This document shows positions 3,817 through 31,674 of a stretch of 58,211 nt of DNA, in pieces (position 1 is the first letter of the stretch; the number at the start of each line of letters is the position of its first letter). The stretch lies in IMG/VR virus record IMGVR_UViG_3300029763_000003; one strand, 5' to 3'. The stretch is from a virus. The notes under the pieces are model-generated. The model saw nothing but the letters and a program-made list of their open reading frames with translations. It made no database searches and had not been told where the DNA came from. A program made the position numbers and the translations under genes.

Positions 3817-4455
3817 TTATTCCTCTACGAGGTCTGCGTACTTGACTTCAATGCGGGGCAGTTCATCGGTAGTGCTGGTCAATGCTCTTGTGATTTTTTC
3901 AAGCCCGGTGAACTCACCATAAACGGTGATAATATCATCTTCCAGAATCTTCACAGCATCGCCACCACGCTTGTCCAGCATATAATACTCGTCATCGGCA
4001 TAGAATCCGTATCCGCTGTTGTCCGTGTAGGTTCTCCACGCTTTCTCGCTGCCGGAGAAGTTTGCGTCAATAATCTGCGAGACCTTTACCTTGACTACAA
4101 TCTTAGTACCTTCATACTTTTCAGGATAACGGCACAGCTCCTTATAGTCCACAGTCTGGCACTCTGCCTTGTAATCGTCCTCGCTGATCTCAGGCACAAC
4201 AGATGCAACGGAAGAAGCGGTGGATGCACTTTCCTTGTTAGACGTAGCGTCCTTGTAGCCTTCTTCAAAGCCCTTCTTGCCGCTATCGCTAGAGCCACCA
4301 ATAGCAGACAAGACAATCAAAACAATGATAGCGATAAACCACCAGCGCTTGTAGATGGGCGGCTTGTTCTTGCCGCCGCACTGAGGGCAGACCTTTGCGC
4401 TTGCAGCAATCTCTGCGCCACAGTGCTTGCACGTTGTCATTTTACTTTTAGCCAT
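3817..4455 (-). CDS. Membrane-anchored zinc-ribbon protein with an extracellular domain (DUF4352-like). Moron or candidate exclusion protein.
   Basis: ATG at 4455 with RBS GGGAGGA. It has CKHCG..CPQCG, then the TM segment WWFIAIIVLIVLSAIGG. The 361-aa ORF-track version extends into a GC-rich non-coding island. Confidence 0.65.
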   Translation of the reverse strand: MAKSKMTTCKHCGAEIAASAKVCPQCGGKNKPPIYKRWWFIAIIVLIVLSAIGGSSDSGKKGFEEGYKDATSNKESASTASSVASVVPEISEDDYKAECQTVDYKELCRYPEKYEGTKIVVKVKVSQIIDANFSGSEKAWRTYTDNSGYGFYADDEYYMLDKRGGDAVKILEDDIITVYGEFTGLEKITRALTSTTDELPRIEVKYADLVEE

Positions 4456-8401: not shown

Positions 8402-9625
8402 TTACATCCACACGCATTCTTTGAACTGCTGAGTTTCCATCTGGAACGTGATGTCCAGCGACCCCACGTTGCCCTCTTTGTTCTTCTCAAGCGCAAAGTG
8501 ATAATGCGGCTCTGGTCGCTTTTTTGTGGTCACGTTCTGCGCCAGCAGGATAATTGCATCTGCGTCCTGCTCGATTTGCCCGGATTCTCGCAAGTCTGCG
8601 GCGGTCGGTGGGATGCCTGCTCTTGCGGTCTCTCGATTGAGCTGCGCAAGGGCTACCACCAGCGTTCCCGTGGACTGTGCGAACTCATGTAGTGCCATGC
8701 TGATCTCCGTAACGGCACTGTATCGGTCTTTCGCTCCGGCTTGATGGATAAGCTGCAAATAGTCAATGAAAACCACTTTAGCTTGCATCCTGATGGACTG
8801 CGTTCTAATCCACCCAACGCTCTTACCAGCGGCAGAGCGGACGAATAGCGGATATTTCTTGATAGCCGCCAGCCGGTCAAGCTCGTTAATGTTGACGGTC
8901 TTGTTCTTGACCGTGTGCAGCGGTACGCCTAGCTGGTTTGCGATAATACGAGCATAGAGCGTGTCCGGGTCGGTCTCTAGGCTGAAATACGCCACCTTGC
9001 GTCCGTTTTTTGCTATTTCACAGGCAAGTTGCAAGGACAGAGCTGTTTTACCGGCAGATGGTCTGCCGCCGATCACAACGAAGTTGCCCGGCACAAGATG
9101 CAAGTTGTTGTCCAACACTCTAAGCCCTGTGCTGATATACTCCGGCTTATCATCTAGCTTGCGGATGTAATTGTCTATGCCGTCACACATCGGGATGAAA
9201 TCGCTTCTCTCGTTGTGCAGGTTTATAGCTTCGCCTAGCTGCTCATAAATGCCTGTCAGGTCTGCATATCTGGTCGAGCCATCAACGATTTTGAATGCAA
9301 TCTCTCTGGCTCTGGACAATGCCGCCTTTTCCTTGACGATTCCAGCCCATCCAAGCATCATGTCGTGAGTGACGTTGCGGATGAACTCTGCACCGAAGGC
9401 ATCCAGACATTCACCCATTGCTTTCTTGCAGTTATCGTACCGCCCCATGACTTCTACCGGGTTCCACTTGTCGTTGTGTTCCCAATAGCCACAAATGGCA
9501 GCGAATGTATCACGCAGTTCAGGGCAGAAATCGTCGATTTTAAGGTCTTGCAGCACATCGGCATATTCCGAGAACGTGAGGACTGCCCCCAGCAGGATGT
9601 ATTGGGTCTGATTTTCAATATTCAC
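8402..9625 (-). CDS. dnaB: Replicative DNA helicase (DnaB family).
   Basis: Walker A IGGRPSAGKTALSLQLA. Also FSLET...VVFIDYLQLI and LAQLNRE... motifs. 407 aa; GTG start overlaps the upstream stop (GTGA). Confidence 0.85.
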   Translation of the reverse strand: MNIENQTQYILLGAVLTFSEYADVLQDLKIDDFCPELRDTFAAICGYWEHNDKWNPVEVMGRYDNCKKAMGECLDAFGAEFIRNVTHDMMLGWAGIVKEKAALSRAREIAFKIVDGSTRYADLTGIYEQLGEAINLHNERSDFIPMCDGIDNYIRKLDDKPEYISTGLRVLDNNLHLVPGNFVVIGGRPSAGKTALSLQLACEIAKNGRKVAYFSLETDPDTLYARIIANQLGVPLHTVKNKTVNINELDRLAAIKKYPLFVRSAAGKSVGWIRTQSIRMQAKVVFIDYLQLIHQAGAKDRYSAVTEISMALHEFAQSTGTLVVALAQLNRETARAGIPPTAADLRESGQIEQDADAIILLAQNVTTKKRPEPHYHFALEKNKEGNVGSLDITFQMETQQFKECVWM

Positions 9626-10302
9626 CGCAGAAAGTCTCCCTCGTCAGGCAATTCAGCCATTGTCTGCTGATAGCCACCGTTCCAGTCCTTCACGTTACGC
9701 ATCCAGTTCCGTGCAGCAGCCTTCCAGTCTTTCATAGGCGATTTGCCAACTTTCCAGCCATTTGCCGTGAAGTGGTCAACAAACCGCTCTGCTTCTGATT
9801 CCATGTAGCCTTTATCCGCAAAGTATTCTTTGGCTTGCTCGACAGTCGGTGCTTTGAAGCGTTTTACTTCGTTGGCATTTTTCTTTTCACATTTTTCTTT
9901 TTTGTCAGATTCAGATACAGAATCAGATACAGATAAGCTACCATTCGTATCAGTTGGTATGTTTGGTATACCATTTATACCATTCGTATCCTGTGATACC
10001 ATTGGTATGCTTTCGTATTTTTTATCGTTCCAACGCTTGTTTATATTTTTCTTGTTTGCTTCTCGTCTACGTCTATCACGTTCTTCCATCTTCTGCACGT
10101 TCATATCATCAAACGCCTTAACGACTTTCCAGAGCATCCGCATAGCACGATCGTTGTCGTATGCTGGCTCAAGTCCAGTCTCAACATACTGTGCATAGTT
10201 GCGGACGAACGCTCCCAATTCCTCGTCTGTCAGCTCGTCCATCGCATGAACGTGTTCCAACAGAAGAATCATTGATGTTCTCGGCTTGTGTTCCTGCTCC
10301 AT
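9622..10302 (-). CDS. Replication protein (replisome-organizer/DnaD-like).
   Basis: It lies immediately upstream of dnaB and is translationally coupled to it. The C-terminus FKAPTVEQAKEYFADKGY..AERFVDHFTANGWKVGKSPMKDWKAAARNW is typical of phage replication organizers (from memory). Confidence 0.5.
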   Translation of the reverse strand: MEQEHKPRTSMILLLEHVHAMDELTDEELGAFVRNYAQYVETGLEPAYDNDRAMRMLWKVVKAFDDMNVQKMEERDRRRREANKKNINKRWNDKKYESIPMVSQDTNGINGIPNIPTDTNGSLSVSDSVSESDKKEKCEKKNANEVKRFKAPTVEQAKEYFADKGYMESEAERFVDHFTANGWKVGKSPMKDWKAAARNWMRNVKDWNGGYQQTMAELPDEGDFLR

Positions 10303-10304
10303 TT

Positions 10305-10535
10305 TCAGTCCTCTTTGTAGCGTTTGTTCCATGCTTCGATAAGGTCGGCTTTAATTCTTTCTTTATCCTTTTCGGAGCAATCAAACCAATACTCCCCACT
10401 TTCCATAAAAACACGGCAAGTGCATTTGTTTTCTCCGTGCGCTCTCGAAATAAACATCCATTTCTTTACATCAGTCCCTGTTTCTGCAATAGCCACTTCC
10501 CCACCGCAGAACGGACATCTCTTGAGTTCTTCCAT
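10305..10535 (-). CDS. Lar-family-like zinc-ribbon protein (candidate for restriction alleviation).
   Basis: The N-terminus LKRCPFCGGEVAI and the 76-aa size resemble the Lar family (from memory). Confidence 0.45.
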   Translation of the reverse strand: MEELKRCPFCGGEVAIAETGTDVKKWMFISRAHGENKCTCRVFMESGEYWFDCSEKDKERIKADLIEAWNKRYKED

Positions 10536-25843: not shown

Positions 25844-26208
25844 TGCAGATTGGGTATACCTTCGCCTTGTCAATTTGTCCCCCATAGGCTATGAATCGAC
25901 AATATTTGCGCGGAATAAATAACGTAGTAGCGATAATACGCAGCTTGCATTTAATCGGTTCGTCAATCCGTCCCCCCATAACATCGGCTTAAAAGTTTTT
26001 CATCCACATTTTGTACACGTTAGAAAGCGCTAACAACGTAAGCACGTTTAATTTTGCCCCATTTCATGCAGATTTAGTATACCTTTAGTTCATACATGGT
26101 GCACACATAGTTAAACATCATTGTACAATAACAACGTATTATCGCATATTTGTGTTTTGCGCAATAAAACCGCTATCGAAAGAACGCTCTGTGCAGTTTT
26201 TGTATACC
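25844..26208 (-). repeat. Three inverted-orientation copies of the Rep iteron (25844-25860, 26067-26083, 26192-26208). Each is paired with an ATCCAC-N-TTTTGTACACGTT box.
   Basis: Read as tgcagattgggtatacc, tgcagatttagtatacc and tgcagtttttgtatacc. Confidence 0.7.
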
Positions 26209-26423
26209 TTTCCATCCACTTTTTGTCCTCGTTTAACGTGCCTAACCGTAGATGGTGCGCCTCTCGGCTTGCTTCTAGCTTGCATTTATTGGCTTTGGAT
26301 GCTATTGTTTTCAACAAGATTTGAAAATTCAAGAAGTGTGTGTTGAAAAGTGTCTGCTTCTTTGCTATTTAGTAGATGTTATTTATCTCTCTTGTTTAGT
26401 ATCTTGTTTAATATATGTAAGGA

Positions 26424-26505
26424 GGCATACCAAATCTGCACGAAGGTATACTAAAACTGCATAGAGGTATACAAAATCTGCACGGACAGGTATACCAAAT
26501 CTGCA
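26424..26505 (+). repeat. Four tandem 17-bp iterons GG(C/T)ATAC(C/T/A)AAA(T/A)CTGCA at 21-23-bp spacing, next to an AT-rich stretch (26340-26420). Plasmid-type oriV.
   Basis: Copies at 26424, 26445, 26466 and 26489. Confidence 0.8.
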
Positions 26506-26524
26506 TGATGGTAGAAATGAACTC

Positions 26525-26553
26525 TTGATAATTCAACCGTGTTGTGATATACT
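26525..26553 (+). promoter_or_regulatory. rep promoter (TTGATA-17-TATACT).
   Basis: TTGATA at 26525-26530 and TATACT at 26548-26553. Confidence 0.6.
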
Positions 26554-26598
26554 GGTATCAACAAGTGGGAAGGATGTGAGAACTTGGGAGACTTGTCA

Positions 26599-27660
26599 AT
26601 GAACAATCTCGTAGAAAAGAGCAAGGCTCTTGTGTGGGCAAAGTTCAGGGACTATACCGCTGGAGAACTTCGTCTGCTAGAAGTATACCTGTCAAGAATC
26701 AACCCTCGCGACCCTGAAAGTGCAACTGTTCAGTTCACACTGAAAGAATACTGTGACTTTTTGGGTATCCGTCTGAACAGTAAAGATTTGAAGCAACAGC
26801 TTAGGCACTTCATTGAGAACACAGTAGCCGTCCCTCTTGAAGGGAAGGACGAATACACTCTGTACACCCTGTTTGCTATGGCGCAAATTCGATTTGACCC
26901 GGAGTGCTTTACATACATGGTCTCAATCAGATGCAACCCTTTGTTGCAGCCTGTGTTCTTTGATATTGCAGAAAAAGGGTATGTTCGGTATCGTCTGCGA
27001 TACACGGCAAGCATGAAGTCTCAGTATAGCATATTGCTTTATTCAATTCTTCGTGACTGGATGAACATGGGGTCGAAGGGGCATGAAATCAGCATCAAGA
27101 AGCTGAAGGAGCAACTTGGTGCGACAGCAAGCAGTTATGACCAGTTCAAATTTTTTAGAGCAAAGGTCTTGGATGTTGCCGTTGCTGAAATCAATGAAAT
27201 ATCCGACATTTCTGTGTCGTATAAAAAACGGACTGTTGGGCACAGAACAGTATCGATTATCTTTGACGTAAAGATAAAACGCTCTGAGCCGGTCATAGAT
27301 GCCGAATCCAGCGAGATTGAGACAACCCCATTAAGAGACGTCTCTGACAACGAAAAGCCTGTAAAAAGCCCTAGAAACGGCGCATACGAAGATGTTGACT
27401 GGGCAAGCCTGATGCCGGGCGTTGACGAAAAGCAGTGTGCAAGCATTGCAAGGTCTGTTGCAAGGCGAATAAAATCTGAATACCCGAATATTCGCAAAGA
27501 CAAGAAGAAGGATGCTGTTGTGAACATTGTGCAGGGCGCATACGAGCAAGCCGTAAAGGGCAAACCGGATGTTGAAGTGCCAGAAGCTTACCTTCGAACG
27601 GTTATCAAGGATTCTCAGTTAAGCAAGTTTGCGACATTCGGGTTCGATTATCTTGAATAA
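26599..27660 (+). CDS. Plasmid replication initiator (Rep_3/RepB-like, iteron-binding).
   Basis: The N-terminus NNLVEKSKALVWAKFRDYTAGELRLLEVYLSRINP...FTLKEYCDFLGI and later SQYSILLYSILRDW are typical Rep_3 patterns. Iterons lie upstream. Confidence 0.75.
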   Translation: MNNLVEKSKALVWAKFRDYTAGELRLLEVYLSRINPRDPESATVQFTLKEYCDFLGIRLNSKDLKQQLRHFIENTVAVPLEGKDEYTLYTLFAMAQIRFDPECFTYMVSIRCNPLLQPVFFDIAEKGYVRYRLRYTASMKSQYSILLYSILRDWMNMGSKGHEISIKKLKEQLGATASSYDQFKFFRAKVLDVAVAEINEISDISVSYKKRTVGHRTVSIIFDVKIKRSEPVIDAESSEIETTPLRDVSDNEKPVKSPRNGAYEDVDWASLMPGVDEKQCASIARSVARRIKSEYPNIRKDKKKDAVVNIVQGAYEQAVKGKPDVEVPEAYLRTVIKDSQLSKFATFGFDYLE

Positions 27661-27675
27661 AGAAAGAGTGATAAA

Positions 27676-28443
27676 ATGGCAAAAATCATAGCTGTCGCCA
27701 ACCAGAAGGGCGGCACAGGAAAGACTACCACAAGCACCTGTCTGGCCGGTGCGTTGCAGTTGCTCGGAAAGAAGGTACTGCTGGTGGACTGCGATGCCCA
27801 GTGCAACACAACGGATACCTACGGAGCACAGACAGAGGACGTATGCACCTTGTTTGATGTGATGACCCGGCAAGGTACGGTCGAAGAAGGAATCCAGCAC
27901 TGTGAAGCTGGTGACATTCTTCCGTCCGACAACGCATTGAAGGACATTGACGAGCAGCTTGTCCGGGACATGGGCAAGAACTTCAGATTGCGAGAAGCCC
28001 TTGAAAGCGTATCTGGGCAGTACGATTACATTGTGCTAGACACTCCCCCGCAGCTTGGTCTTGCGCTTGTGAACGCGCTGATCGCCGCCAACAGCATCAT
28101 CGTTCCCATCACAGCAGACCGATACGCACTGGCTGGTTTGAGCCAGCTTTCGCAGACCATCGGCGATGTTCGCAGATACTTCAATCCGACTTTGAAGATT
28201 GAAGGTCTGCTTCTGAACCAGTACAAGAGCCGTGAGAACCTGTCCAAAGAGGTTGTGGAGCAGCTTCCTGTAATTGCACAAAGCATGGGAACAAAGCTAC
28301 TGGACGTGAAAATTAGACCGTCTATGGGCGTTCGTAAGGCACAGGCAGAGCGTCACAGCCTGTTCAGTGGTGACACGGCAAAGAGTACCAGCGCAGAGGA
28401 TTTCAAGGCGTTGGCGAAGATGATTGTAGAGGGGGATGTGTAG
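27676..28443 (+). CDS. parA: ParA/Soj-type partition ATPase.
   Basis: Deviant Walker A VANQKGGTGKTTTS, plus LLVDCDAQ and YDYIVLDTPP. Confidence 0.85.
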   Translation: MAKIIAVANQKGGTGKTTTSTCLAGALQLLGKKVLLVDCDAQCNTTDTYGAQTEDVCTLFDVMTRQGTVEEGIQHCEAGDILPSDNALKDIDEQLVRDMGKNFRLREALESVSGQYDYIVLDTPPQLGLALVNALIAANSIIVPITADRYALAGLSQLSQTIGDVRRYFNPTLKIEGLLLNQYKSRENLSKEVVEQLPVIAQSMGTKLLDVKIRPSMGVRKAQAERHSLFSGDTAKSTSAEDFKALAKMIVEGDV

Positions 28444-28700
28444 TGAATGTAGTTAGATATAAAGAGTTGGAAAAAGCCGAGTTTGAATTGCAAAGCAAAT
28501 TCAGCTCGAAAGATGTTATGTTTTTCCGCCGAGGGGATGGAATAGACAATCCGATTTATTATGTTGTTTCGCAAAGACATTGTGGGGCGTTAAGTCCCGA
28601 AGAAGCCATAAAAGCCGGAAAAGTTTTGATTGAAGCTGGAAATGCGGCGAAATCTTTTCGGTACAACGGGTATTTTATTGATTGGAGTGACACACAGTGA
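28443..28700 (+). CDS. Small protein (85 aa) translationally coupled to parA. Possible partition adaptor.
   Basis: GTG start overlaps the parA stop (GTGTAGTGA). RBS GAGGGGGA. Confidence 0.5.
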   Translation: MNVVRYKELEKAEFELQSKFSSKDVMFFRRGDGIDNPIYYVVSQRHCGALSPEEAIKAGKVLIEAGNAAKSFRYNGYFIDWSDTQ

Positions 28701-29269
28701 AAAAGTCCAGCAAAAAAACATCCGGCTTGTTGGGCGGGTTTGATTTCCAGCCTATTTCTTCGGGGCGGGCATTAAGCCAAAGTGAGCCAAAGGAAGAAGA
28801 AGTAAGCCAAGCAAAGCCGAACGAAGCCGAACAAGAACAGATTGAGCCCAGTGAAGCCACAGGCAGCCATGCACAGCCTAATGAAGCACGGTTAAGCAAT
28901 ATTAAGCCGAAGCAAGCCAAAGACAGCGGAACACAGCCAAACAATGCAGTAGTAAGCGAAAGTAAGCCAAAGAAGCTGAAACAGGCGAAAGAAGTTCAAC
29001 GTCTTATCGAACAAGGCGATGTTCCAGGAGCACTAGCAGAAGCTGGTTTGACAAAGAAAAAAATCCCGATGCCGGAATCGCATCAGGGCGTTGCAAGCGG
29101 TGATGGCAAGCGTTCTAAGCGCATTACCATCCTTATGAGCGAGGAAGAACGCAAGTACATCAACCGTGAAGCAAGACGGCACGGAATGACCATCGGGCAG
29201 TATGTGTACGCTCTGGCTGCTGCTGCGGCAGACGGAAAGATTGAATTGGAGGATTTTTTAGATGAATGA
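28697..29269 (+). CDS. Ribbon-helix-helix DNA-binding protein with a low-complexity E/K/P/Q/S N-terminal half.
   Basis: The C-terminus KRITILMSEEERKYINREARRHGMTIGQYVYALAAAAA fits an RHH pattern. The GTG start overlaps the upstream stop. Confidence 0.6.
   Translation: MKKSSKKTSGLLGGFDFQPISSGRALSQSEPKEEEVSQAKPNEAEQEQIEPSEATGSHAQPNEARLSNIKPKQAKDSGTQPNNAVVSESKPKKLKQAKEVQRLIEQGDVPGALAEAGLTKKKIPMPESHQGVASGDGKRSKRITILMSEEERKYINREARRHGMTIGQYVYALAAAAADGKIELEDFLDE
28771..28970 (+). repeat. Twenty consecutive decamers with RAGCC in fixed phase (12 exact AGCC, 4 AGCA/AGCG). Candidate centromere/operator array inside a coding sequence.
   Basis: AGCC occupies positions 5-8 of the decamers starting at 28771, 28781, 28801, 28811, 28821, 28841, 28851, 28861, 28871, 28901, 28911, 28931 and 28961. 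AGCA or AGCG occupies them at 28881, 28891, 28921 and 28951. Confidence 0.8.
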
Positions 29270-29681
29270 CGTGTGGACTGATATTGGGCAGAAATATGAA
29301 GCAATGGCAAATATGGGATGCAAGCCTTATGGTTTCAAGCGAGTTCCATTAAATTTTGTGTTTGATGAAGATAAGTCGGTGAAGTGGAACAAAGAACAAG
29401 CGCAAAAGAACAACGATGATTACGACAATGAAGTTAAGCGACTGAATCAAGAAAAAATGAAGCGCAGGGATGAAATCTACGCAGAGATTTATAAGACGAT
29501 TCAAGAAGAAGTCGGTTTTGGGATTTCAGAAAAGAAAGCGGCAAAAATTTGGCGGTACGCTTACGATAGAGGGCATTCAGCAGGATGGTATGAAATAATC
29601 ATCAATTTGGAAGAAATTGAAGAACTCGTAAAGTTCGTATTAGGTAAAAAAACTGAGTTGGAGGATTTCTTAGATGAATGA
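29262..29681 (+). CDS. Hypothetical protein (139 aa).
   Basis: ATGAATGA overlap with the upstream stop. The C-terminus is ELEDFLDE. Confidence 0.6.
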   Translation: MNDVWTDIGQKYEAMANMGCKPYGFKRVPLNFVFDEDKSVKWNKEQAQKNNDDYDNEVKRLNQEKMKRRDEIYAEIYKTIQEEVGFGISEKKAAKIWRYAYDRGHSAGWYEIIINLEEIEELVKFVLGKKTELEDFLDE

Positions 29682-30555
29682 TAGTGAACGACGCCTTATT
29701 CGATTTGTTTGCGATGGTGATATGCGAAACGCGCAAAAAGCTGTTAAAATCATTTTGAATTCCATATCATCCAAAAAAGATGAGCAGTTCAAAGAAAATA
29801 TGCTTCGCAAGTTGGAAAGCAAAAGAGAATTTATTGAATTGCCATATAACTTACAGCATCTTTTGATCGCAGAGGATACAGAAGAATTTCCAGAAGCAAG
29901 ATTCCTTCTTAGGAACGAAGAAAAAAGTATAACGCAGAAAATCATTGCTATTTATCGAGCATCTGAAAAATTGAACGAAATGGGCATTCCTTATTTGCCA
30001 GCATTGATGCTTTATGGACAAAGCGGATGCGGAAAAACCATGCTGGCTAGGTATATCGCTCATAAAGCAAAACTTCCGTTTTTGAGGATTCAATTTTCAA
30101 GTCTAGTTGATTCGCACTTAGGGCAAACTCAATCTAACCTTGCGAGAATTTTTGATTATGTGAGAACCGCTCCTTGCGTTCTTTGTTTTGATGAAATAGA
30201 TGCGGTCGGAATGGCTCGTGGGCAAAACGATGACGTTGGGGAAATGAACCGTGTGGTTATTGCGATTATGCAAGAAATGGATAGATTGCCGAATAATGTC
30301 ATCATTATCGGAACGACAAACCGATTTGATAGGATTGACCCTGCGCTTACAAGAAGATTTCCGTTGCAATACGAATTAAAGCCGTTGTGCCGTGCGGATG
30401 CAGAAATACTTTCCAAAAGGTTCTTTGAATATGCAGGAGCACAATATGAAAACATAGCTTATGAAGACCACGTCCCCGCATCTACTGTTATCAAAGAATG
30501 TACAGAACGAATTGTAAATCAAGTTCTGAATCAAGAGGATTTCTTGGAGGATTGA
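29674..30555 (+). CDS. AAA+ ATPase (classical AAA family, PF00004-like).
   Basis: Walker A GQSGCGKTMLARYIA and Walker B VLCFDEIDAV. Also IIGTTNRFDRIDPALTRRF (sensor / Arg finger). Confidence 0.8.
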   Translation: MNDSERRLIRFVCDGDMRNAQKAVKIILNSISSKKDEQFKENMLRKLESKREFIELPYNLQHLLIAEDTEEFPEARFLLRNEEKSITQKIIAIYRASEKLNEMGIPYLPALMLYGQSGCGKTMLARYIAHKAKLPFLRIQFSSLVDSHLGQTQSNLARIFDYVRTAPCVLCFDEIDAVGMARGQNDDVGEMNRVVIAIMQEMDRLPNNVIIIGTTNRFDRIDPALTRRFPLQYELKPLCRADAEILSKRFFEYAGAQYENIAYEDHVPASTVIKECTERIVNQVLNQEDFLED

Positions 30556-30558
30556 CGA

Positions 30559-30837
30559 ATGGGCGTAACCATCAAATGCAAAAAGACTGGGCGTGAAATG
30601 GATGTGGGCTATTTCGGGTTTTTCAAGTTGAGAACGAAGGTTGCAGAACTTGTTGGTTCGGAAGTCGGAGAGCACTATAAAAAACTTGATGACATTCTCG
30701 ACATACCATCTCCCGAAAAAGAACACGTTCTAGAATCATACAATGACGAAACAGAGCGATTGGTTGAAAGCAAAATGCTTCCGATTAAAATTGCAGATTT
30801 CCTTTATCAATCGGACTGTGACGGAAAAATCCGATAA
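30559..30837 (+). CDS. Hypothetical protein (92 aa) ending at an in-frame TAA that is followed by 50 open codons.
   Basis: GGAGGA RBS. See the feature at 30838-30990. Confidence 0.55.
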   Translation: MGVTIKCKKTGREMDVGYFGFFKLRTKVAELVGSEVGEHYKKLDDILDIPSPEKEHVLESYNDETERLVESKMLPIKIADFLYQSDCDGKIR

Positions 30838-30990
30838 GGTGCCTGCAAGGAAATCTTAAAAGTTATAGGTGATTATGACGATAGCATTATTTACGGATAT
30901 GCTGGTAGAGAAAACCCCGCAAAGTTCAAAGACTTCAAAGAAATCCTTCAAGATTGTGTAGGCAATAAGTGCTTTATGATTTGGAGATAA
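30838..30990 (+). other. In-frame 50-codon extension downstream of the TAA at 30835-30837. It has no start codon of its own.
   Basis: Translation: GACKEILKVIGDYDDSIIYGYAGRENPAKFKDFKEILQDCVGNKCFMIWR, then a stop. The operon terminator follows this second stop, not the first. Confidence 0.5.
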
Positions 30991-30995
30991 CAATA

Positions 30996-31037
30996 AACCC
31001 CTGTGTAGTCACAATGACCGCACAGGGGTTCTGTTTT
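30996..31037. terminator. Bidirectional rho-independent terminator (10-bp stem AACCCCTGTG/CACAGGGGTT).
   Basis: It lies between convergent operons. The T-run CTGTTTT follows. Confidence 0.75.
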
Positions 31038-31674
31038 ACTTATCAGCAATGCAATCCCAGTAGAGATACGCCTTGCCATCTGCAGCATCTGCGTCTTCAA
31101 GGAACGCCTTTGCCATGTCAGCGTAGAAGCCAGGAGTGTCAACGGACTGGCGCTTTGCGACCTGACAATAATCCGAGTACATCATGTTCATAACAGCCCA
31201 GAAATCGTTCGGGTCACAGGTGATATTGCGCTGTTTCGCAACGTCCTGTGTCTGTTCCAGCGTCCAGTGACAGCCCTTCGTGCCATCAGCGTTCACCATG
31301 CTGTCGCACCATTCCTCTGCTTCATCATGGGTGAGGTGCTGGCGCGGCATCTTGATGGAGCGGCCATCTGCACCGCCACGCTCATACTGCCCAGACCGCT
31401 TGTTCCAGTCACCGTTCTGCGAGAAGCCAATTTGCGGCATTCTGCGCCCATTCTCTACGTCAGGGTAGCGGGGGATAGGGTAGGGGTCGATGTAGCGGTT
31501 CTCTTCCTGCGGATAGTAGGGATAACGGTCGTTGCCGCCTTCCAGTTTACGCAGACGGCGTTCCATCTCACGCTCCCTGCGGTCACGCTCTTCCTCAAGG
31601 CGGTCACGCTCCGGCTCACGGTCTTTGTCGTGGTCGCGGAGCATCATCATGCGGCGAAAATTAGTCTTGCCCAT
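31036..31674 (-). CDS. Hypothetical protein (212 aa): R/E/D-rich N-terminal half and a Cys-containing C-terminal domain.
   Basis: RBS GAGGAGG. DREPERDRLEEERDRREREMERRLRKLE, then HLTHDEAEEWCDSMVNADGTKGCHW...NMMYSDYC. Confidence 0.6.
   Translation of the reverse strand: MGKTNFRRMMMLRDHDKDREPERDRLEEERDRREREMERRLRKLEGGNDRYPYYPQEENRYIDPYPIPRYPDVENGRRMPQIGFSQNGDWNKRSGQYERGGADGRSIKMPRQHLTHDEAEEWCDSMVNADGTKGCHWTLEQTQDVAKQRNITCDPNDFWAVMNMMYSDYCQVAKRQSVDTPGFYADMAKAFLEDADAADGKAYLYWDCIADK

Follow-up and report, generated by a model that had tools for sequence, protein, structure and literature searches.

Susskind and Botstein are said to have framed phages as products of modular evolution, with short conserved boundary sequences at the joints of the mosaic. 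Here, we examine a gene junction that recurs in a 58,211-nt stretch of viral DNA (IMG/VR record IMGVR_UViG_3300029763_000003; the whole stretch is referred to below as the window) and gives three consecutive proteins, a candidate partition protein of the ribbon-helix-helix (RHH) type, a 139-aa protein, and an AAA+ ATPase, the same acidic C-terminal tail, EDFL(D/E)(E/D). A comparable case comes from mycobacteriophage Island3, in which gp68 shares its C-terminal 18 residues, and ~50 bp of sequence, with the upstream gp67 (Pope et al. 2011, PMC3029335), a sharing that the same paper (PMC3029335) explains by recombination at a short repeat and relates to the model of boundary sequences. In both phages, an optional gene stands between two copies of a short direct repeat that takes in the 3' end of the gene before it, the same C-terminus thus appears on unrelated proteins, and the repeat is exactly where relatives that have the gene part from those that lack it. 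The present locus differs in that the repeat is 11-28 nt rather than ~50 bp and coincides with a ribosome-binding site (RBS) and an overlapping stop and start, in that it is reused by several genes, with ~120 distinct contexts after the RHH gene that include a permuted gene order, and in that its copies are translated, untranslated, or frameshifted depending on the genome.

The junctions also invite comparison with translationally coupled ATGA and TGATG junctions, as the Shine-Dalgarno (SD) sequence lies within the upstream open reading frame (ORF), stop and start either overlap or are separated by 3 nt, and the operon is tightly packed. What distinguishes them is that an identical junction is reused at successive genes, so that it determines how the upstream protein ends as well as the MND with which the downstream protein begins; coupling itself is something that we infer here. 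Integron cassettes, too, are promoter-less optional genes downstream of a fixed point with a repeat at each boundary, but no integrase was seen within this operon, the junctions form no attC-like hairpins, and the repeat is an RBS-containing coding end rather than the site of a dedicated enzyme.

The explanation that we favor, with a probability of roughly 0.8, is that the acidic tail is shared because an RHH-derived ribosome-binding junction was copied along with each optional gene spliced in, and not because the three proteins carry a common docking peptide. The locus is thus a well-documented new example of known phage mosaicism, not a new system. If so, the shared motif would be the coding shadow of a reused gene junction, which calls for caution in reading short C-terminal similarities between neighboring proteins as functional peptides. 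It would also offer an unusually clean natural series for the old question of whether short boundary sequences mediate the exchange of phage modules, with ~120 arrangements after the RHH gene in which genes have been inserted, deleted, replaced, or reordered at a joint of 11-28 nt, in a phage-plasmid family that is very abundant in the human gut.

A recurring gene junction and the genes that it joins

The genes and junctions concerned, all on the + strand, are as follows.

28697-29269, +: RHH gene, 190 aa, NikA-like, following ParA; candidate centromere-binding partition protein and native owner of the ELEDFL(DE/ED) tail
29243-29269, +: junction 1, wider unit, GAATTGGAGGATTTTTTAGATGAATGA; last 8 RHH codons, SD, U-rich 8-nt spacer, next ATG, and overlapping TGA
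29246-29269, +: junction 1, TTGGAGGATTTTTTAGATGAATGA; SD GGAGGA at 29248-29253, spacer of 8 nt, ATG at 29262, TGA at 29267-29269
29262-29681, +: gene for the 139-aa protein (phrog_10980); optional, 131 aa in most relatives, absent in many, and located after the AAA+ gene in one (L254)
29646-29652, +: A7 run within that gene; relatives carry AAAAAGAA, corresponding to a 1-nt deletion in the window lineage
29654-29681, +: junction 2, wider unit, TGAGTTGGAGGATTTCTTAGATGAATGA; direct-repeat copy of the RHH 3' end plus start module
29658-29681, +: junction 2, TTGGAGGATTTCTTAGATGAATGA; SD at 29660-29665, ATG of the AAA+ gene at 29674, TGA at 29679-29681
29674-30555, +: gene for a classical AAA+ ATPase, 293 aa (IetA-like; phrog_3757); optional, its last 6 codons (EDFLED) supplied by the junction cassette
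30535-30561, +: junction 3, wider unit; GAGGATTTCTT followed by GGAGGATTGA, CGA, and ATG
30535-30555, +: junction 3, GAGGATTTCTTGGAGGATTGA; working SD at 30546-30551, TGA at 30553-30555, next ATG at 30559

The three junctions lie where the preliminary description placed them and read as it reported: each contains GGAGGA, junctions 1 and 2 differ at 1 of 24 positions and include the overlapping ATG of the next gene, and the C-termini are ...GKIELEDFLDE for the 190-aa protein, ...KKTELEDFLDE for the 139-aa protein, and ...LNQEDFLED for the 293-aa protein. Junctions 1 and 2 are in fact homologous beyond the 24 nt first recognized, matching over 34 nt at 88% identity with the copies 412 nt apart. 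Junction 3, which had been described simply as related, is so through its left half, the 11-nt repeat GAGGATTTCTT common to junctions 1 and 2, after which comes a second GGAGGA; its right half is an RBS and stop unit, TTGGAGGATTGAnnnATG, that accompanies several different downstream genes. The 139-aa gene is therefore flanked by junctions 1 and 2, and the AAA+ gene by GAGGATTTCTT. In all three cases, the SD lies inside the upstream ORF, at a distance of 8, 8, and 7 nt from the ATG at junctions 1, 2, and 3, respectively, with an 8-nt start/stop overlap, ATGAATGA, at junctions 1 and 2 and a 3-nt gap at junction 3. Both proteins downstream of junctions 1 and 2 share the N-terminus M-N-D (ATGAATGAY), which is contributed by the cassette.

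A search of both strands of the 58 kb for the pattern GAGGATTTYTTRGAKGA, allowing up to 2 mismatches, returned exactly 3 matches, namely junctions 1-3, while shuffled sequence gave a mean of 0.07 matches and none of 100 shuffles reached 3; among all window ORFs of at least 40 aa, none besides the three carriers has the tail. An RNA element at the junctions was considered and ruled out, since they fold no better than shuffled sequence (z = +0.77, +0.69, and -0.17 for junctions 1, 2, and 3) and an Rfam scan of 26000-31200 gave no match there. A candidate inverted copy of the cassette at 30935-30951 was treated as a chance occurrence, being 1 of 49 comparable pairs in 5.5 kb.

Variation behind the RHH gene in relatives

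Relatives of the window provided 167 distinct RHH contexts in which the tail could be compared with the start of the next gene, and ~120 distinct gene arrangements after RHH for a survey of neighbors. RHH tails ending in LD plus one residue (~119 of the 167; LDE in ~116, LDA or LDV in 3) always occur with a next ATG that overlaps the stop, ATGAATGA, and the protein that follows such an overlap begins with MND in all but three. Tails ending in LED (~43 of the 167) always occur with a TTGGAGGATTGA(nnn)ATG-type junction or with no nearby ATG, and the few remaining contexts, those of the LEE and LEEE variants, lack an ATG within 12 nt. As the type of RHH end tracks the type of junction, the downstream module sets the last two residues of the protein. 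The same start module, ATGAATGAY, opens three unrelated genes, those for the 131/139-aa protein (29262-29270), for the AAA+ ATPase (29674-29682), and for a 158-aa protein in another relative (L166); it is thus part of the shared junction, and the cassette shapes the start of proteins as well as their end.

The genes behind RHH are combined in several ways: the 131-aa gene and then AAA+, AAA+ directly, the 131-aa gene and then another gene, or another gene alone. The AAA+ gene is in turn followed by one of at least five different genes, and the 131-aa gene by AAA+ or by the same alternatives, through joints that consist of either one unit (GTTGGAGGATTGACGTATG) or two (GTTGGAGGATTTCTTGGAGGATTGACGTATG). 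A hybrid joint in L002 combines the left half of junction 2 with the right half of junction 3, and where TTGGAGGATTGAnnnATG accompanies its downstream gene, yet another protein comes to end in ...SLED. In L254, the order is permuted to RHH, AAA+, and 131-aa gene, and the AAA+ protein there ends in EDFLDE. In L166, the unrelated 158-aa gene stands behind RHH (start at 4084, also MND) and is followed by an untranslated 33-nt sequence, AAGATTGAACTAGAAAATTTCTTGGAGGATTGA, that reads KIELENFLED* and is a copy of the RHH end. Breakpoints between relatives with and without the optional genes fall inside GAGGATTTCTT, and substitutions shared between the flanking repeats and the RHH 3' end of the same genome, as copying or gene conversion would produce, are seen in part.

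The sequence relationships, the variants in presence, absence, and order, and the breakpoints are direct observations, and they fit a scheme in which the last RHH codons (GAR TTG GAG GAT TTC TT...) would double as the RBS for the next gene, providing the SD GGAGGA and a U-rich spacer. Optional genes would be spliced in directly behind RHH, each with its own start module, either AGATGAATGA, in which the start overlaps the upstream stop, or GGAGGATTGAnnnATG, so that an optional module would extend from AGATGAATGA through its gene to GAGGATTTCTT. Within the 11-28 nt that the modules share (from GAGGATTTCTT at the least to TGAGTTGGAGGATTTCTTAGATGAATGA at the most), recombination could then insert, delete, swap, and reorder genes, each insert leaving a copy of the RHH 3' end behind it. 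Translation of that copy would be incidental and set by reading frame alone, in frame at the end of AAA+ (EDFLED) and, in most genomes, out of frame after the 131-aa gene, EDFL being simply GAGGA-UUUCUU read in the RHH frame. Every module would land behind a working RBS, and expression would carry on undisturbed when a module is gained, lost, exchanged, or moved to another position. The overlapping or near-abutting stops and starts found through the whole operon suggest that this RBS acts with translational coupling, while homologous or short-homology recombination is the probable mechanism, and insertion, rather than deletion, the probable direction of change.

This direction agrees with the position of RHH in more distant relatives, as it is the last gene before the terminator in L172, L252, and L253 (the last a 567-nt fragment in which RHH is the only called gene), with a convergent DUF7841 gene next in L172 and L252. 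The ancestral operon therefore likely ended with RHH, whose C-terminus would already have been acidic and aromatic and was later used as an RBS for added genes.

The tail in the three proteins

Of the two origins offered in the preliminary description, the by-product of a copied translational-coupling cassette is thus supported in a refined form, the cassette being the RHH 3' end, duplicated and lost with the optional genes. The other, a docking peptide common to all three proteins, fares poorly once their homologs are compared. The 139-aa protein is 131 aa long in 71 of 80 orthologous IMG/VR loci, where the tail is lacking and the cassette is untranslated; only 8 of the 80 encode 139 aa with the tail, all 98-99% identical to the window, and one orthologue reads the cassette in the third frame (...ISWRIDA). 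In the two closest GenBank relatives, the 131-aa protein ends in ...KKN at a TGA, and the cassette, GTTGGAGGATTT(A/C)TT...ATG, lies after the stop. With the 1-nt deletion in the A7 run of the window, this ancestral TGA (29654-29656) is no longer in frame, and the reading frame runs on through the cassette, giving the protein the tail TELEDFLDE. Since the tailed allele was found in contigs of at least three datasets, it is a real variant, and a recent one specific to this lineage. Untranslated copies of the cassette show changes of GGAGGA to GGGGGA, TTC to TTA or TTG, and GAT to AAT, as well as one 1-nt insertion, such that the would-be peptide changes from E to G, F to L, and D to N and loses one stop, while the purine-rich SD is retained, as is its spacing to the ATG in most variants; a crude count of changes in the untranslated copies mixed junction types and is of no quantitative use.

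For the AAA+ ATPase, C-termini are unrelated in homologs of less than ~90% identity; those at 57-70% identity (among 120 homologs) keep the last helix (...ECTxxIVNQVL) and then have unrelated ends, which would make the tail a recent feature confined to this phage family. The tails of AAA+ and RHH both evolve at the average rate of their genes, with non-synonymous rates for tail and body of 0.022 versus 0.020 in AAA+ and 0.072 versus 0.064 in RHH. The comparison of homologous operons that had been proposed as a check thus divides the three carriers: unrelated C-termini among relatives, which had been named as grounds for abandoning a functional tail, are found for two of the three proteins, the 139-aa protein and AAA+, but not for RHH, of which diverged relatives keep variants of the tail (LEDFLDK, LEDYLEEE, and EIYLEIE) although they lack both the SD and a downstream gene coupled to it.

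Several observations on RHH and AAA+ weigh against the copied-junction explanation, at least as a complete account. Diverged RHH homologs are few (the C-terminal half was searched against 1.8 billion representative proteins), with ends such as ...NLEDFLDK, ...VLEDYWEEE, ...EVEIYLEIE, ...SVGEYV, ...IELE, and ...EIVL, and contigs found through the VLEDYWEEE protein carry alleles ending in VLEDYLEEE, VLEDDLDE, and VLEDFLED. In one of these diverged homologs (P0245, in L169), LEDFLDK is encoded as CTG GAA GAT TTT CTG GAT AAG TGA, without an SD, and the next gene begins ~100 nt past RHH with promoter-like hexamers in between. Compared with the window, this tail differs in four codons by synonymous changes only and in one by an amino acid, and the synonymous-only changes indicate constraint on the RHH tail at the protein level. 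The tail therefore looks like a real protein-level feature of RHH, and a by-product reading leaves its origin in that protein unexplained. Likewise, the NQEDFLED end is present in essentially all 66-68 close AAA+ relatives, as it might be if selection acted on it. Finally, the close relatives are all metagenomic contigs, most of them from one IMG/VR dataset, and the counts given above do not represent independent events.

One alternative is that the RHH tail is a genuine short linear motif, for dimer-dimer cooperativity on the 10-bp repeat array described below or for docking, which AAA+ keeps for recruitment to the same partner or partition complex. We regard this as unlikely. Were it true, with a functional tail co-opted by AAA+, junction-mediated insertion would hand newly acquired genes a ready-made targeting peptide. 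That the RHH tail mediates cooperativity between dimers on DNA is a guess made by analogy with other RHH proteins. The tail is present in part of the RHH family only, with distant homologs ending in ...IELE or ...EIVL.

Somewhat less probable still is a shared docking motif through which RHH, the 139-aa protein, and AAA+ would all be recruited to a single partner, whether ParA, the AAA+ ring, or some factor of the host, and which selection would have kept. It would account for the tail on all three window proteins, for its retention throughout the AAA+ family, and for LEDFLD-like tails in diverged RHH relatives in which they have no RBS role, and it is compatible with the AlphaFold2 (AF2) model of RHH, in which a short helix (185-188) follows helix 2 and the final block of residues has a mean pLDDT of ~72, in a model of moderate confidence overall (mean 63). 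Such a motif is hard to reconcile, however, with the 71 of 80 orthologues of the 139-aa protein that lack the tail and in which the cassette drifts as non-coding DNA, with the different ends of AAA+ homologs and of the more distant RHH homologs, with last residues that switch according to the downstream gene, and with tails no more conserved than the rest of their genes. The acidic C-terminal tip of SSB, the peptide DDDIPF, docks partner proteins and is similar in being a short acidic and aromatic peptide at the extreme C-terminus. The tail described here differs from it in not being conserved in the homologs of two of its three carriers, in ending with acidic rather than hydrophobic residues, and, in RHH, in directly following helix 2 of the predicted structure with no long disordered linker before it. 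As for the partner, ParA is an unlikely one, because the conserved N-terminal KKxSGLLGG of RHH looks like the usual ParA-contacting end, judging by analogy with the biology of ParB and ParG.

It is very improbable that the same optimal RBS evolved independently at the three junctions with no copying or recombination. The idea has some appeal in that EDFL is the translation of an SD (GAGGA) and a U-rich spacer (UUUCUU), and the window holds an independent case of SD and spacer yielding a DFL C-terminus: an unrelated 236-aa protein encoded at 9622-10332 on the minus strand ends in ...PDEGDFLR, encoded by GAGGGAGACTTTCTGCGGTGA, which comprises an SD, a U-rich spacer, and the overlapping GTG of a DnaB-like helicase gene (8402-9625). 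Independent origin does not explain, however, why identity spans 24-34 nt, including positions with no role in the SD, and it leaves unaccounted for the hybrid joints, the one- and two-unit forms, the permuted gene order, and the untranslated 33 nt, copied from the RHH end, that follow an unrelated insert. A literature search on SD-imposed C-terminal composition and on IetAS yielded nothing directly usable.

Programmed frameshifting at AAAAAGAAC-TGA, by which relatives would make both a 131-aa and a tailed 139-aa product and of which the window allele would hard-wire the longer, was rejected as scarcely credible: although an A-rich run (GAT AAA AAG) lies just 5' of the stop and the cassette is open in the +1 frame in many relatives, the required shift is in the wrong direction, AAC-TGA offers no +1 re-pairing for a tail in that frame, the SD-like element comes after the shift site whereas that of prfB comes before it, and relatives show erosion of the +1 frame by an indel, the loss of a stop, and substitutions of F by L, E by G, and D by N.

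The partition operon and its phage-plasmid setting

The window represents a ~58-kb tailed phage with genes for terminase, portal, major head protein, and tape measure outside the operon, and the combination of phage structural genes with a plasmid-type maintenance operon therefore identifies the element as a phage-plasmid. The operon, on the + strand and tightly packed, runs from iterons through Rep3, ParA, an 85-aa gene, RHH, the 139-aa gene, and AAA+ to a small last gene, after which there is a terminator-like hairpin with a T-run. Its remaining features are as follows.

26063-26513: iterons of ~21-22 nt, AGGTATACCAAATCTGCA; 4 direct copies at 26423-26513, inverted copies at 26063-26087 and 26187-26211
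26584-27660, +: Rep3-type replication initiator of the plasmid module, with iterons 5' of the gene
27676-28443, +: ParA-type partition ATPase, upstream in the same operon
30559-30990, +: last operon gene (MGVTIK...), 143 aa in most relatives and 92 aa in the window

The iterons upstream of Rep3 would form a plasmid-type origin. ParA and RHH are separated by the single small 85-aa gene, in an order that is kept in relatives. The match of RHH to the NikA-like Pfam model (E=7e-6, 26.5 bits) is below the cut-off of 27, but the AF2 monomer places helices at 149-161 and 166-178, where expected and with pLDDT of 85-94; no strand was modeled. The arrangement resembles type Ib partition systems (ParG, omega), in which the gene after ParA encodes an RHH protein that has a conserved basic peptide at its N-terminus and a disordered linker, and phased repeats lie nearby. 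It differs in the greater length of the RHH protein (190 aa) and in its acidic C-terminal tail, which classical ParG and omega lack, in the additional 85-aa gene, and in the location of the candidate centromere inside the RHH coding region. This candidate consists of ~20 consecutive 10-nt units, nRAGCCnnnn, at 28773-28972, and 15 of 15 AGC[CG] motifs in 28760-28980 share one register modulo 10. Because 10 is not divisible by 3, the repeats point to a signal at the DNA level, with one motif per helical turn, and they are a candidate parS-like centromere array for ParA and RHH within the part of the gene that codes for the disordered N-terminal linker.

Relatives of the element are very abundant in human-gut metagenomes, comprising three unannotated GenBank phage contigs, several hundred IMG/VR contigs of 55-60 kb, and protein clusters of thousands of members. 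A plasmid database gave no match, a scan of GTDB reference genomes with the RHH protein and with the RHH family alignment found nothing and hence no host, and within IMG/VR the RHH alignment recovered close relatives only and the diverged P0245 nothing. According to one account (PMC7969092), the phage genes of phage-plasmids are conserved, while those on the plasmid side vary. In this phage family, the variation described above marks the stretch after the partition genes as the accessory-gene hotspot.

The AAA+ protein matches the PADLOC IetA models (E=2e-55), but the gene for the IetS serine protease is absent beside it: its neighbors, the 139-aa and 92-aa proteins, have no protease domain, and relatives have only small ORFs in these positions. 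It may be a solo IetA-like factor for defense, counter-defense, or maintenance. In L001 (MT836731.1; 6940-7717), the AAA+ gene is split into ORFs of 90 and 171 aa, which would reflect either a disrupted gene or an assembly error.

In two relatives, a second RHH, of the window type, is truncated to 106 aa (4398-4718 in L164 and 4368-4688 in L165), the order being a divergent RHH allele (VLEDYLEEE), a 77-aa zinc-ribbon-like gene, and the truncated copy. The copy in L164 is directly upstream of AAA+; that in L165 has the end EDFLED, with a small MKKFV... ORF after it. These arrangements have the form of a recombination scar in which the partition protein itself was replaced.

In the last operon gene of the window, an in-frame TAA at 30835-30837 cuts the MGVTIK... 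protein to 92 aa, while most relatives continue to the equivalent of 30990. The same 92-aa allele is found in six other distinct relatives (e.g., L014) and is apparently a nonsense allele or pseudogene. Further downstream, among small accessory genes, there is a second conserved junction, (C)GATAAAAG(Y)TGAG(W)TYTAGGAG...ATG (L166, 4590-4615; also L002 and L013), which could serve this hotspot as another boundary sequence.

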